The notes under the pieces were generated by a model, which saw only the letters and a list, made by a program, of their open reading frames with translations, had not been told where the DNA came from and ran no database searches. The position numbers and the translations under genes were made by a program. From contig OZ024741.1 in NCBI GenBank assembly GCA_964016885.1, positions 90,396,001 through 90,460,000 on the forward strand: a stretch of DNA of 64,000 nucleotides, read 5' to 3'. Of this stretch, positions 6,795 through 62,319 are shown one piece after another. The stretch comes from Eledone cirrhosa. Taxonomy: Eukaryota. How positions within the stretch are numbered: position 1 is the stretch's first letter; the number at the start of each line of letters is the position of its first letter.

Positions 6795-7537
6795 TTATCT
6801 CTTTCTCTTAATTTCGAGTATATTTTTTTGACCGGCCACCTTACTGGTGGCAAGGTTGTAAAAGAAAAGAAATTGTCATCCCTTGAATCGCAAGAATGTT
6901 TTGCAAAGTTTGAAGGTGCCAGCTATCGCAGCCATTTGTAGACTATGAATTAGGGAGCTGCGCTCTTTGTCTGCAAATCCAAGTTCAGTCATACTTTGGT
7001 CCAAACGGGTTGGTATATAACCCGTAGCTCCAATAATGATGGGTATGAAGCTAAAGGTGTATCTTGGATACTGGATTTGTAAACTCCTCATCAATGGTCC
7101 GTAGATGTCCTCCTTCTCCTGTATTTTTCTGACAACGTTTACATCAAGTGGGCAGCTGATCTCCACAACAGAACACGTTTTCAATGTGTGGTCCCAAGCA
7201 ACAATATCAGGCCGGTTGTGCTTTAATTTGGTTGCAGTTTTTATTTTCAGGTTCCACCAGTATTCCTTAGTGCCATCTGTCTCAATATATTCTTCCTCGT
7301 TTGCTGTTAATTTTGTTTTCCGAAGTGCGTTCCAGATGGTTCTAACTATCCCATCGTGTCTCATGGGGAGGTAGTAACGAGATGACATTCTTTCGCAGCT
7401 GGCAACAATGTGGCTTACATCCTCGATCTTTGTTTTACATAGCCTACATTTATTGTCAGCTGATGGCCCTCCCCTTTTGTGCAGCAGATATTTGGTAGGG
7501 AGTTCTTGTTCCTGTATTGCATAGAGATATCCCTCAT
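6795..7537 (-). mobile_element. R4/Dong-like non-LTR retrotransposon, 5'-truncated copy 1
   Basis: EGYLYAIQEQ...CRLC...HIVASC (CCHC), RHD, NRPDIV...VEISCP endonuclease; bounded by (TATG)n at both ends. Confidence 0.9.
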
Positions 7538-7560
7538 ATGTATGTATGTATGTATGTATG

Positions 7561-9313
7561 TTTTCTCTTTCTCTTAATTTCGAGTATATTTTTTTGACAG
7601 GCCACCTTCCTGGTGGCAAGGTTGTAAAAGAAAAGAAATTGTCATCCCTTGAATCGCAAGAATGTTTTGCAAATTTTGAAGGTGCCAGCTATCGCAGCCA
7701 TTTGTAGACTATGAATTAGGGAGCTGCGCTTTTTGTCCGCAAATCCAAGTTCAGTCATACTTTGGTCCAAGCGGGTTGGTATATAAAAAGTAGCACCAAT
7801 AATGATGGGTATGAAGCTAAAGGTGTATCTTGGATACTGGATTTGTAAACTCCTCATCAATGGTCCGTAGATGTCCTCCTTCTCCTGTATTTTTCTGACA
7901 ACGTTTACATCAAGTGGGCAGCTGATCTCCACAACAGAACACGTTTTCAATGTATGGTCCCAAACTACAATATCAGGCCGGTTGTGCTTTAATTTGGTGG
8001 CAGTTTTTATTTTCAGGTTCCACCAGTATTCCTTAGTGCCATCTGTCTCAATATATTCTTCCTCGTTTGTTGTTAATTTTGTTTTCCGAAGTGCGTTCCA
8101 GATGGTTCTAGCTATCCCATCGTGTCTCATGGGAGGTAGTAGCGAGATGACATTCTTTCGCAGCTGGCAACAATGTGGCTTACATCCTCGATCTTTGTTT
8201 TACATAGCCTACATTTATTGTCAGCTGCTGGCCCTCCTCTTTTGTGCAGCAGATATTTGGTAGGGAGTTCTTGTTCCTGTATTGCATAGAGATATCCCTC
8301 AAGGTGTGATGTCATAAACTTGTCGGAACTCCATGCCAGGCTTTTTGAGTGGTTTATCCCCTCTATGGTCTGTGTTTTACGCCTCAAGTATCCATGCACA
8401 ACTTTTTCTGTAAATTGGTCAATTTTTTTATCTTGTTTGAACATTGAATAGGATCTTCCGATTTCTCTGGGTGAGAGATTTATATCAGGCTTTATTCCAT
8501 ATCTCTCCTCCAGATCAGTCGCTATTCTAATGATATTTCTTTTTTCATGGTCATAAACCTGGGCAAGATGGTTGCCAACCTTTTTCCTCTGTTGAAGGTG
8601 TTGCTTCAGTGTTACTATCCGGGTCTCATATGTTGTTAATATTGATTTTAGACCCCGGCCACCTTCCTTGCGTGAGAAGTATAGCCTATCCACATCACCA
8701 TTGATGTTAAAGTTCCCAGTAACACTGAGAAGTTTTCGAGTTCTAACATCCATCTCACTTAGTTCTTGCAATGACCAGTTCAGTAGGCCAAATGTTGGCG
8801 TTAGAATTGGCACAGCATAAGTATTGTGGGCAATGTATTTGTTGTATGCTGACAGTTCTGATGACCATATTTTCTTTACTCTTCTGAGGTATTCAGTTCT
8901 GGTTCTCTCCTTATTTATGGGTCCATCATATCTGACATTCTCATCCTGTCCAAGATATCTGTAGTTGTCACCTGACTGCAGAGGTTGTATTGTCAGGCCG
9001 TTCATCTCTAGATTTCTAGAGGAGGGCACAGCTCTTCCACGTTTTACTGCCAAATATGCACACTTGGACTCACCAAATTTCATTTTGATGTCGGTTGAAA
9101 ATTGTGTAATGAGGTCCAATTGTTTCTTGATGTCATTGATATTTGACCCATACAACTTCAGGTCATCAACAAAGAAAAGATGGGAGATACTTCTGGGCCC
9201 ACTTCTTTGTCCACCTTGTTTCCTGAGTAGGTAAGATAGTGGATTCAGTGAGAGAACGAAGAGTAGCACTGACAAGCTATCACCCTGAAAGATGCCCTTC
9301 TGGTAATGTATCT

Positions 9314-9316
<3 letters not shown>
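7561..9316 (-). mobile_element. R4/Dong-like non-LTR retrotransposon, 5'-truncated copy 2 (RT + CCHC + RLE)
   Basis: [32 protein letters not shown] motifs; 1-bp frameshift near 8130; 3' part nearly identical to copy 1; (TATG)n at both ends. Confidence 0.93.
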
Positions 9317-9345
<29 letters not shown>

Positions 9346-9504
9346 TGTATGTATGTATGTATGTATGTATGTATGTATGTATGTATGTATGTATGGGCGG
9401 AAGACCTCATAAGAGTCAACGGCCATCCAAAAATGTGTAAACATGTATATACACATGTACATATATATCTATATGTATATATGTATATACATGCGTGCAT
9501 GTAC

Positions 9505-9862
9505 ATGTATATGTGCGGGGAAATAGAAATAATCGGGCTGGATACCCGATCGTGCGGTTAAACCACTGGGAGGGAAGGACCCCTAGCCTTTGTCAGGACA
9601 TTCTTCTAGGAGAAGGTAACTCAGGAAACTGGGATAATTCTGATATAAAACCTGCGGCTCAGTAGTTACCGATGATGTTGATCTTTTCTTCTTTTCGGGT
9701 TATAGCTTCTGTCGCTCAGAGAGTGGGATTGGCTCAGTGCACAGTCTTTCCTCACTTTAAAAATAATCTTCACGCACAGGCATTGCTCGATAGCATTAAC
9801 TGAGAATTATTAATAATGTTATATCGTGAAATGTCCATACTCGATGACAAGGGGGCAACCGT
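9505..9862 (+). mobile_element. Non-coding repeat family 'ctaggagaagg' with (TATG)n tail
   Basis: Highly similar to the reverse complement of 53620-53975; followed by (TATG)n at 9863-9937. Confidence 0.8.
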
Positions 9863-14297: not shown

Positions 14298-15086
14298 ATG
14301 GAAAGACACATCCAACACTTCATCAACCGCATGTAGTTCTCTGGCTACAACCAAAGAGACAGAGTCAGAGTATACGAAGGAGTCATGGAGAAGTATAAGA
14401 CCCTCATAGAACTGGACATGAAAGGAATTTGCCCATTATACAGGAGCAAATCATGGAATAGCTTAGATAGGGCTAGACACAAGATAGGGAAAGCCACCTC
14501 ATGGTACGACAACCAAAGATACCAGAGTGTCATGTTTGTGGACGCTACCCCTGGAGAGAAATTAGCTAACCAGTGTAGAAAGGCCCTGAGAAAGACCCAC
14601 TTGAAAATAAAGGTGGTAGAAAAGCCAGGAACCACCATAAAATCCCTGATCAGCAAAACCTACCCTTTTAAGAAAACCCACTGTACCAATAGGAAATGTA
14701 TCATATGTAAGGTGAACCCCCGGATAAACTGTAAAACTAGAAACGTAGTCTATAGCATAAGATGTACAGAGGGTACATGCAGAAACATGACAACAAAATA
14801 CATAGGTGAGACAGCTCGTAGTATAGGTGAAAGGATAGACCAACACTGGGGGGAACTAAAAGGACGAAAAAACGGGTCAGTACTATACGAACATGCTAGA
14901 CAACAACATGACAGTAACATAGACAACATAGAAATTAGAATAATATCTAAACATAGAAATGACCCAGCAGATAGGCAAATCAGAGAGGCCAGTGAAATAG
15001 AAATTAGAAGACCAAGGCAAAACAGAAAGAATGAATGGAATAACAACAACACCCAAACAAACAACACTGACCTAAGAGAAGTATAA
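14298..15086 (+). pseudogene. Penelope-like RT C-terminus + GIY-YIG endonuclease (one in-frame stop)
   Basis: FINRM*FSGY; C..C.IC; NVVYSIRC...C...KYIGETARSIGERIDQH...RQIREASEI...NRKNEW. Confidence 0.88.
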
Positions 15087-15326
15087 ATAAGTAAATAAAA
15101 TAAAATAAAATAAATAAAATAAATAAATAAATAAATAAATACACAAGCACAATAACAACAAGCACATAAACACACACTAGTCACCCATCATACAGCAAAC
15201 AAAACACTATACACACACGCAAACGCATGCGCAAAGAAGACAAAATAAACAAACAAACAAATAAATAAATAAATATATAGACAGACTGAATAAAAATGGC
15301 GTAGGCATACAATACAACAGGAGGAA

Positions 15327-15408
15327 AATATAGCACCACTGACGATGTTGCAGATGTGCAACGAAAGATTTATGATAAACTATATATATGTGTTTGTGTC
15401 TATATTGT
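15327..15408 (+). ncRNA. Degenerate hammerhead ribozyme in the PLE 3' region
   Basis: CTGACGA (15339-15345) T GTTGCA-gatg-TGCAAC GAAA, then a possible stem III and CTA; stem I is disrupted. Confidence 0.5.
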
Positions 15409-15603
15409 ATCTGTATTATTTTTGACCGTCGGTCAGTCAATGGCAACATTGAGGACCGAGTAAGTTAGATTACCAATATAAAAGACACAGAAGCGAGAAG
15501 CGAAAACCAACCATACAGTGAGTGTGTTCTGTTATTAATTCTGGCAATATTACACAAATATGACCCTCCCCAAGTATAACTATATATATATATATATATA
15601 TAT

Positions 15604-30479: not shown

Positions 30480-31850
30480 TAGCTGTTCATTAGCAGTCAA
30501 CTGAGGTAACATCCCTTATTTTTCGAGTACCCTCCGGAGTATTCGAACTGGTTCCAAGCAATGCTGTTTTGTAAGTGCTCCATCCGTATTGCAATCCCTA
30601 TTTTTTGTTTAATGTAATTCCCAAGACTCCAACTATTATTGGTATTACCACCACCTTTTTCAGTGACTACAGCTGCTTAATCTCCCAAGCTAACCTGACA
30701 TATATAGCAATTGTTTTCCTTCTTTATCACACACCTTGTTATCAGCTGGACAGGCTATATCTATGATCCAACACTGTTTGCTTTCTTTCTCAATACAATA
30801 TCTGGTCTCTTATGTTCAATCTCATTGTTACATTGTATCACAAAGTCCAAAAAGATCTTTGCATCATCATTTTTTATAACGCCCTCAGGGTTATGTTCGT
30901 ACCACTTTTCTGCTCTGTCAAATGTATATTTGCCACAGCTTGCCCAATGGACTCCTCATGCCATATATGCTATACAGTTTCTCTATTTATGCCACAAATT
31001 CTACACTTATCACTTTATGTTGGGTGGTCTACTCTGTGCTTGTAGTTAGTTTTCAGTGCTTGTTCTTGAGCAGCATAGATCAAGGTCTGTTTCCAATTTT
31101 AGATCACTTTTAGCCCTTTTTCTCTGTCTGTGCTATCTTCAACATCTCTATGGAATTGTCCATACATTCTTTTTTTCTGTTTCATCCAACTTCAAATGCT
31201 TGCACTGTGTTTTTTCTTTACAATCTCTTTGAACATCTCTTACCTTCTTACTTCTAGCAACAGGGGTTCTGTGGAATTTTTTATGTATCACGCTATGCTA
31301 TTTTCGTCTCTTCTTCCTCTTTTTCATGGAACATATAATCTGTCTGTGTCGATCTTATTCCGTCCATTCAGTTTCCACTTAAGTGTAAGTCTCAGTCTGT
31401 GCATATATCTCACCCTAAATTTTTATTTCCTTTCCATCTGTATTATCTCATCAACTTCCAATATCTCTAAGTACTTATAATTTTCATCTTCTATTTGCTT
31501 CATAACCTTTCCTGGTGGCAACACCAATCCCTAAATGCTTTTAATTTTGCCTCTGTTCAAGATTAATGTACCACACTTTTTAAATCTGATGTCAGCACTA
31601 AATGTATATACCGTATCAACGAGGGAACCTAGCTGGGATTCATTCTTACTATAAAACACAAGGTCGTCCATGAATGATAAGTGGTAGACCTTTTGCTGGC
31701 GATTTTTGAATTCATACCCAGCCTCAGCTTTTTCCAAAAGCATTATCAGTGGTATGATGCACAGTAGAAACATCAGTGGTGACAGGCTGTTCTCTTGGAA
31801 TATATTGTTTCTAAATTTCCTATATATGCTGTCAGTTAAGTCTTCCACTC
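30480..31850 (-). mobile_element. Decayed R4/Dong-like retrotransposon
   Basis: IFQENSLSPLMF, HLSFMDDL, YKYL remnants; 3' VVVIPIIVGVLG. Confidence 0.8.
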
Positions 31851-31930
31851 TTTCATACTTTCCCTTAAGAATTGCTCACAAAAGTAGCCCCAACAATGCA
31901 CTCAAACACAGAAATAGGGCCGATGCTTAT

Positions 31931-31960
<30 letters not shown>

Positions 31961-31962
<2 letters not shown>

Positions 31963-32356
31963 TAGTATCAGTGCTCTGAAATAGCGATGTATGTATGAAT
32001 GTATGTATAGTATATTTGGTAATATACTGTATGTTTATTTAAAAACATCGCTATTTCAGAGCACTGACACTAATTTCTCATTTTTGCTGGACCGGCAACT
32101 GTTCTGCTTAATCAGCTCTTAAACATCACTGGAATTCTATAAGTATCCAGCTTCGATAAGTCTCGGCAGAAGCGGAGGGATAAGCAATCTTGATAACCGT
32201 TAACAAACGAGAAACAGCTGTCGGTTGCTTCCCTTTGTTTTTGCCGAGACAAAGTAAGTGACATAGTCAGTACTTTAAAACTCATAGCGAATGGTCTTCA
32301 AAATGTTTTAAAATAAACATACAGTATATTATCAAATATACTATACCTACATTCAT
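31961..32356. mobile_element. Fold-back HHR element, family B (related to 55393-55810)
   Basis: Hairpin 31961-32074; 31995-32045 inverted at 32310-32356; shared block tttttgctggaccggcaac...ctggaattctataag; (TA)n flanks. Confidence 0.8.
32160..32250 (+). ncRNA. Type I hammerhead ribozyme, UUGAUAA (C3U/G8A) core variant
   Basis: aagcaatc TTGATAA c cgtt-aaca-aacg a GAAA cagctg TC | ggttgctt; stem I extended by ggga/tccc and gtctcggcag/ttgccgagac; predicted GUC cut after 32222. Confidence 0.8.
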
Positions 32357-32464
32357 ATATATATATATATACCCATAATCTCAAAAATCACAACAAAACA
32401 GTATATTTTTTGTTGAATCACCAGTCTGAACAGCAAATCAATAGTGGATTCCGGCCCATAACTT

Positions 32465-55392: not shown

Positions 55393-55399
<7 letters not shown>

Positions 55400-55810
55400 T
55401 TGGTGCTCTGAAATAGCGATATATATATGAATGTATATATGAATGTATATATATATGAATGTATATATGAATGTATATATGAATGTATTTTGCAATATAC
55501 TGTATACTTAATTAAAAGCATTTTCAAGACCTTACGCTATTGTTTTAAAGTAGTGACTATATCAAACAAAGGGAGATAAGCTGACAGTACGCATACAGTG
55601 TATTGCAAAATACACTATATATACATTCATATATATATATATATCGCTATGTTAGAGCCCCAATTCTAATTTTCAATTTTTGCTGGACCGGCAACCGCTC
55701 TGTATAATCAGTTCCTGATTATTACTGGAATTCTATAAGAATCCAACATTCATAATTTTCAGCAAGCAAAGGGAGTACTAAGCTCTGAGGAGTACCAACA
55801 GTACGAAACC
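55393..55810. mobile_element. Fold-back HHR element, family B, rearranged; canonical core at 55785-55808
   Basis: aagct CTGAGGA gtac-caaca-gtac GAAA, truncated after GAAA; the matching 3' half (ctgTC agctt..ctccctttg) lies inverted at 55567-55590. Confidence 0.75.

Positions 55811-60821: not shown

Positions 60822-62319
<1,498 letters not shown>

Follow-up and report, generated by a model that had tools for sequence, protein, structure and literature searches.

The systems closest to the locus described here are the non-LTR retrozymes of metazoans (Cervera and de la Pena 2020, PMC7229834; Li et al. 2026, preprint 10.64898/2026.07.22.740005) and the Penelope-like elements (PLEs). According to the main text of Craig 2021 (PMC8557442), PLE insertions include inverted 5'-truncated copies and partial tandems, carry tails of 30-40 bp and occupy (TA)n or other AT-rich targets. 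For an anole PLE, the main text of Frangieh 2024 (PMC11167929) describes hammerhead mutants without effect on insertion in vitro, and cleavage that needs the PLE protein; this result keeps alive the alternatives to self-cleavage that are weighed below. Compensatory changes have served as a footprint of hammerhead structure before, in the main text on a cave-cricket satellite (PMC2837043), and that of a squid genome study lists 235 hammerhead loci without analysis (PMC6962438).

The U3-A8 form of the hammerhead core occurs naturally in Schistosoma Cercyon elements, with about 1,300 matches given in the main text (Cervera and de la Pena 2014, PMC4209133). The main text of Perreault 2011 (PMC3088659) reports U3-A8 covariation in several natural hammerheads as well as a U10.1·U11.1 mismatch. 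In that survey 10.1-11.1 is the most conserved pair after 15.1-16.1, U·U is its best-tolerated mispair, and matches with 10.1·11.1 unpaired were rejected by default. No paper on the family described below was found in the literature consulted, mostly open main texts whose supplements may list the family or C·A and A·A at 10.1·11.1.

We analysed a stretch of 64,000 nt from Eledone cirrhosa (GCA_964016885.1, contig OZ024741.1, positions 90,396,001 to 90,460,000 of the forward strand), referred to as the window, and the relatives of two of its sites in the whole assembly (3.0 Gb, 1,796 contigs). A first-pass annotation had read the sites, at 32 kb and 55 kb, as sister hammerheads whose differences at positions 3 and 8 and in stem II indicate selection on catalytic structure.

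Results

The hammerhead at 32 kb

A type I hammerhead fold lies at 32160-32250 (+), with core to cut site at 32190-32222. Its parts and the repeat that contains it are as follows.

31961-32048 (-): inverted 5'-truncated piece of the unit with a tail of about 30 nt; (TA)n before it at 31928-31962
32046-32364 (+): whole unit of about 320 nt, S1 monomer, 36% GC, (TA)n end; 94% to the S1 reference over 319 nt
32160-32189 (+): stem I 5' arm and long rod, 2-nt bulge at 32181-32182
32190-32196 (+): core 5' box U3 U4 G5 A6 U7 A8 A9 (UUGAUAA, U3-A8 variant)
32197-32210 (+): stem-loop II, 14 nt, with C10.1·A11.1 mismatch, 4 pairs and 4-nt loop
32211-32222 (+): G12 A13 A14, palindromic stem III and C17; predicted cut after 32222
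32223-32250 (+): stem I 3' arm and long rod

The features annotated at this site (U3/A8, palindromic stem III, GUC and a long interrupted stem I) were all located. GAAA occupies 32211-32214, the palindrome ACAGCUGU 32214-32221 and GUC 32220-32222, and stem I has 28 pairs with a single 2-nt bulge seven pairs from the core. The copy carries U4, G5, A6 and A9, G12, A13 and A14, the A15.1-U16.1 pair and H17. Positions 3 and 8 form a Watson-Crick pair (U3-A8), and three stems surround the core, stem I being open and stem III 2 bp long in the monomer. Stem II pairs cgtt with aacg (32198-32201 / 32206-32209, pairs 10.2-10.5). Its core-adjacent pair, usually a closing G-C, is lost to a C32197·A32210 mismatch (C10.1·A11.1), and other stem II registers in S1, tried by eye, either keep C·A or break the GAAA box.

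Besides the pair, C·A takes away the purine N7 metal ligand at 10.1 known from structural work on hammerheads, and it should slow the ribozyme. Since published exceptions exist, the mismatch lowers the expected rate and leaves the fold unaffected. From this mismatch and the 2-bp stem III the 32-kb copy is predicted to cut slowly; as a dimer, S1 stem III becomes an 8-bp duplex (-11.1 kcal/mol) in place of 2 pairs. The annotation expected either single mutant to lose activity. A8G alone would leave a U·G wobble and need not be inactive, while U3C/A8G gives the consensus core.

The hammerhead region folds with z -7.55, a value equalled by none of 200 shuffles, and a custom type I descriptor matches the window at 32190 (+), 62065 (-) and 16576 (-). 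In its minimum-energy fold, 2.3 kcal/mol below the hammerhead fold, the copy has its core buried. Rfam gave no hammerhead match in the window at the gathering score and none for 31900-32450 at E<=10.

Further hammerhead-like motifs were seen in the window. The matches at 62065 (-) and 16576 (-) are complete type I hammerheads of unrelated repeat families, with relatives in loci L297 and L283. Five sites, 15682 (-), 17459 (+), 54775 (+), 62833 (-) and 62984 (+), make up a family with CUGAUGA...GAAA and a long stem II that resembles PLE minimal hammerheads, 62833 and 62984 being an inverted pair; 58027 (-) and 60371 (+) are near-identical inverted copies of a hammerhead-like motif followed by (TA)n. 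On the opposite strand of the unit itself, 32054-32115 (-) holds CUGAUUA...GAAA around a 6-bp stem that pairs, with a U at position 8 that breaks the core; it is possibly a second-hammerhead relic, or merely the complement of a hairpin.

The sister copy at 55 kb

The second site consists of two parts.

55393-55587 (-): inverted S4 pieces: tail, 3' end and, at 55563-55587, a cut-site fragment of 25 nt that lacks the core
55644-55809 (+): 5' part of an S4 unit, C3/G8 core, G-C-closed stem II, ending after GAAAC; 95% to S4 reference 1-166

The two copies are homologous (75% over 145 nt), and the sister has, as annotated, a CUGAGGA core (C3/G8) at 55785-55791 and a gtac/gtac stem II at 55792-55795 / 55801-55804. 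It is not a complete hammerhead, however. The copy tracks the intact S4 reference to 55809, 11 nt before the cut site (reference position 177), and has no stem III, NUH site or 3' arm on the strand of the core (fold z -0.06). Judged by what it retains, it cannot cleave in cis. The stem II comparison between the copies was set one register apart, the C32197·A32210 mismatch having been overlooked. As proof of selection, which the annotation took it to be, the two-copy comparison is weak: it represents a single event with stem II out of register, and it proves little because the 55-kb copy is truncated, without stem III or cut site.

The repeat unit and its insertions

Both window sites belong to one non-coding repeat unit of about 320 nt. 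A 26-mer common to most of its subfamilies has 1,972 exact matches in the genome. The unit contains no open reading frame of at least 110 aa. In size and composition it falls within the range of non-LTR retrozymes (150-450 nt, non-coding, GC below 50%, one type I hammerhead), with GC of 35-36% and circular folds of z -6.3 (S1) and -6.5 (S5).

In order, the 32-kb insertion consists of (TA)n, the tail and the 3' end in inverted orientation, a whole unit and (TA)n again. A fragment of non-LTR retrotransposon reverse transcriptase (RT) lies just to its left at 31531-31875 (-), and more such sequence, with RVT_1 and zf-RVT matches, at 6876-9557 (-). Across the family, 3' ends are fixed and 5' ends scattered: 370 of 439 pieces reach the last 13 reference positions. 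Copies also include inverted partials and more-than-unit lengths, their tail of about 30 nt duplicates the start of the unit, and (TA)5 occurs within 60 nt of 207 of 391 3' ends.

Head-to-tail tandems, as expected of non-LTR retrozymes, are present in the family; the 32-kb copy is a monomer. Two-core tandems number 7 among 171 parsed copies, are spaced 301-340 nt apart and occur in S4, S5 and S6, while the 51 parsed S1 copies contribute none. Two further tandems are one of S3 (L287) and one S1-like (L131, with G12 altered in one copy). The cut-to-cut distance in tandems equals the unit length (319 nt). One tandem, L216:1164-1620 (+), joins S6 to S5 head to tail, 340 nt apart, and may have arisen by template switching or from mixed arrays.

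The 5' starts of pieces (n=436) are in excess just past the predicted cut, 57 falling at 0 to +29 from it against 15 at -30 to -1, with none at 0 or +1. The 0 to +29 zone is the 3' arm of the rod, and a second excess, 42 starts between +80 and +99, sits next to other hairpins; stalled reverse transcription accounts for the 5'-end excess as well as cleavage does.

A candidate mobiliser

Autonomous PLEs are present in the genome. A young, abundant element with a GIY-YIG-like end gave 30,855 first-look candidates, 150 of which were scored. One locus (L282:1985-5626) holds a 1213-aa frame with a long Asn-rich insert, flanked by 480-nt terminal direct repeats that carry their own hammerhead core. 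Its motifs are, as we take them to be, those of RT and GIY-YIG; PLE identity also draws on the repeats and on its Atlas neighbours (HTH_animal, GIY-YIG, RVT_1). Pfam and PDB sequence searches returned no family for the frame. Within the window, a 3' fragment of the abundant young PLE lies at 14337-15535 (+), with the CUGACGA core of its terminal repeat near 15339.

No RT-endonuclease frame was attached to the unit in the 90 of 311 loci checked for frames with 1.5-kb flanks, and in the single PLE family compared the pseudo-LTR has no homology to the unit. The young RT/GIY-YIG element is thus a candidate mobiliser only.

Subfamilies and core states

From 231 loci, 171 distinct copies were parsed and 7 dropped. 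The S1, S4a, S5 and S6 loci were found via hammerhead similarity and are biased to that extent; L091-L120 and L151-L206 were found otherwise. The family comprises at least seven subfamilies, here given with their states at 3-8 and 10.1-11.1.

S1 (32-kb type): U3A8 in 49/51 and C10.1·A11.1 in 49/51 parsed copies
S2: U3A8 with A·A at 10.1·11.1, 3/3; 5-bp stem III
S3 group: mostly C3G8 with A-U or U·U; also a U3A8, A·A subgroup
S4 (55-kb type): C3G8 in 48/51, G-C or A-U at 10.1-11.1
S5: U3A8 with G-C at 10.1-11.1, 26/27
S6: U3A8, 24/24
S7: U3A8 in 40/40 pattern matches, with positions 3 and 8 free

U3-A8 is present in six subfamily groups, and the pair at 10.1-11.1 in S3a, S4, S5, S6 and S7. Among 40 exact-flank genome matches of S1, with eight core positions left free, A8 was found in all 40, U3 in 38, C10.1 in 39 and C3/G8 in none. 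The first 100 of 415 S3-type matches, counted by hand, gave C3G8 75, U3A8 9, U3G8 5, C3U8 5, C3A8 2 and other 4.

Copies of S3, S5 and S6 align to the full Rfam model HH9 (RF02275, clan CL00010) with 23-27.5 bits (E 0.0025-0.063), below the gathering score, which is 52; the S2 and S4a copies searched gave no match. Among 14 subfamily representatives the hammerhead is the minimum-energy fold in one, from S2. In that subfamily (L102:1545-1614 (-) and relatives) a 4-nt duplication makes stem III a stable 5-bp hairpin, which suggests, on the folding model, a shift from dimer to monomer cleavage.

Covariation and the repeated 3-8 switch

The 14 representatives are hand-picked and related. They have 92.9% of cells paired and double changes in 11 of 14 pairs, and slid controls are 16-41% paired. 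The covariation score was reached by none of 500 shuffles, a control that is not a probability because the representatives are hand-picked and related; a measure of further pair types gave no excess over shuffles (365/500). Positions 3 and 8 are paired in 14/14 representatives (U-A 8, C-G 6), in states fixed by subfamily. Position 17 is never G, and G12, A13, A14 and A15.1-U16.1 are invariant. The weakest pair is 10.1-11.1, unpaired in 7/14. Across six subfamilies compared, invariant positions are 9/9 in the core, 0/20 in stems I and II and 164/215 among flank columns. The flanks are probably constrained too, so change faster than in the flanks is not the same as change faster than neutral.

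Trees were built from flanks only, leaving out the hammerhead, with 58 and 66 rows and with large subfamilies subsampled. U3A8 subfamilies S5 and S6 nest within C3G8 S4 behind several starred branches, far from S1. The fewest 3-8 changes on this tree is two, and a single origin of U3-A8 is rejected (AU p=2.8e-5, in a test run after the tree had been inspected); with 14 more, noisier rows (66), five changes are needed (AU p=0.005). As unrooted trees they give no direction of the switch. To either side of its core S5 has S4-like letters, which speaks against the transfer of a module from S1. The double switch between C3G8 and U3A8 thus occurred independently at least twice.

Single copies

Once inserted, single copies lose their core about as fast as their flanks. 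In S4b, where bias from selection on the hammerhead is smallest, private changes stand at 2.6% in the core against 3.1% in the flank; S1 copies carry 15 changes in 320 free core positions (hand count). As the core decays like the rest once inserted, selection acted on the lineages that transposed. In contigs of three runs from one study, possibly of the assembly's own sample and of unrecorded run kind, paired variants were found at 32200/32207 and 32216/32219, with none listed at position 3 or 8.

Three further readings were rejected. An amplified broken-core C3·U8 lineage is not seen, the copies being scattered without forming a clade (4/5 in the tree); two of them share an insertion with a C3G8 copy. 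Nor is there an amplified C3·A8 lineage: the stem-I-deleted copies L098 and L116 share outer flanks and represent one locus duplicated, 20 Mb apart. For RNA editing as the origin of variants, the flanks have private A>G changes as often as T>C ones (9.6 vs 9.5 per 1000), hammerhead and rod give 8.0 vs 6.5 per 1000 (p=0.50), and a C>T/G>A bias is absent.

The comparisons support a conclusion on selection that rests on transposing lineages, which likely were selected to retain the self-cleaving fold. The annotation's claim of structural selection stands for the subfamilies, with their invariant core, compensatory stems and at least two switches, and falls for single copies. The 32-kb copy is a solitary insertion and probably no longer under selection.

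Discussion

We propose that the unit, present in thousands of copies, is a non-LTR retrozyme moved by a PLE, whose lineages were likely selected for a self-cleaving fold and passed from C3-G8 to U3-A8 at least twice; we hold this reading as a whole to be probable. By analogy with published retrozymes, tandem copies would be transcribed and their hammerheads would cut after GUC, in S1 as dimers via the 8-nt palindrome. Cut monomers could then be ligated into circles, from which a PLE RT/GIY-YIG protein might copy more-than-unit cDNA into AT-rich sites.

The alternative that survives best, which we regard as unlikely yet worth keeping, accepts the retrozyme family and holds that S1 is catalytically crippled, spread by a PLE protein copying uncleaved RNA or through being cut out by its neighbours in mixed arrays, with a core conserved only because S1 is recent. 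This would fit a subfamily that is small (40 exact-flank matches), has lost the 10.1-11.1 pair to a fixed C·A and has its hammerhead fold 2.3 kcal/mol above the minimum. The mixed S6 and S5 tandem exists, and PLE insertion in vitro did not depend on hammerhead cleavage according to the main text of PMC11167929. Against it, the lineage leading to S1 changed letters in stems I, II and III yet kept pairing and core, and stems II and III of S1-like copies, L131 among them, still show double changes. The main text of PMC7229834 gives 22% cleavage in 1 h for the monomer of an axolotl retrozyme whose stem II begins with U·U, and more for its dimer.

Selection across the family might instead have acted on the hammerhead-shaped fold as a signal for binding or folding of a retroelement protein, and not on cleavage. 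That most representatives favour a non-hammerhead fold would agree with this, as would the anole PLE hammerhead, which in the main text of PMC11167929 cut only with the PLE protein and was unneeded for insertion in vitro. We consider the idea improbable, however. The 3-8 pair forms solely in the active core and was retained through two double switches; G12, A13, A14 and A15.1-U16.1 are invariant, and none of the 14 representatives has G at 17; and the unit length matches the 319-nt cut-to-cut distance in tandems. That the 3-8 difference is chance drift between two copies, and the motif an accident of a hairpin-rich repeat, is scarcely credible: the 32-kb copy has no Rfam match and 16 of the first 100 of 415 S3-type matches, single old copies, are neither C3G8 nor U3A8, but the 3-8 states are fixed by subfamily, the C3·U8 copies form no clade, the C3·A8 pair L098/L116 is one duplicated locus, and the descriptor matches 0/200 Markov-simulated windows.

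A retrozyme family selected for self-cleavage accordingly remains our preferred reading, and natural U3-A8 cores and the retrozyme class were already known. The novelty is modest and lies in the repeated switch and in the amplification of a U3-A8 lineage carrying C·A or A·A at 10.1·11.1. One backbone offers a dated natural series, running at 10.1·11.1 from A·A to C·A, A-U, U·U and G-C, at 3-8 between C-G and U-A, and through five stem III lengths. This makes testable whether self-cleavage is needed for the spread of retrozymes and what core variation is tolerated in vivo. The family also illustrates that thousands of copies can escape Rfam thresholds. More speculatively, and in our judgement doubtfully, the family may record evolution as an RNA population, in which the hammerhead stems are replaced entirely, the remainder of the unit scarcely changes and the core pair flips again and again; its U3-A8 copies with C·A or A·A at 10.1·11.1 would still be efficient in vivo, cleaving as dimers or together with the PLE protein. 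If true, animal retrozymes would include a natural hammerhead that works though it lacks the conserved 10.1-11.1 pair, and there would be direct evidence that they replicate and are selected at the RNA level.

The points that the family shares with metazoan retrozymes, as given in the main text of PMC7229834, are a type I hammerhead in a low-GC non-coding unit of about 320 nt, its occurrence as monomer and as head-to-tail dimer, a genome that also contains PLEs, and a short palindromic stem III. It differs from them in being mostly dispersed monomers and inverted pieces, with dimers the largest arrays seen and no long arrays, and in having U3-A8 in six subfamily groups and C·A and A·A at 10.1·11.1. 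Axolotl HHR_Amex2 in the same text also has a mismatch at the base of stem II, U·U there and C·A here. In the main text of Perreault 2011 (PMC3088659) neither C·A or A·A at 10.1·11.1 nor repeated switching inside a single family appears; the 8-bp dimer duplex of S1 stem III agrees with the dimer model in the main texts of PMC3088659 and PMC4209133. Like PLEs, as described in the main texts of PMC4209133 and PMC8557442, the family has inverted 5'-truncated copies, tandems, tails, (TA)n targets and variable stems with compensation. PLE minimal hammerheads, in those texts, combine a long stem II with little stem III and carry one more base after A9, whereas here stem II has the canonical 4 bp and stem I is long and bulged. 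In the 90 of 311 loci checked, finally, the unit stands without an attached RT-endonuclease frame, and it has no homology to the one pseudo-LTR tested.
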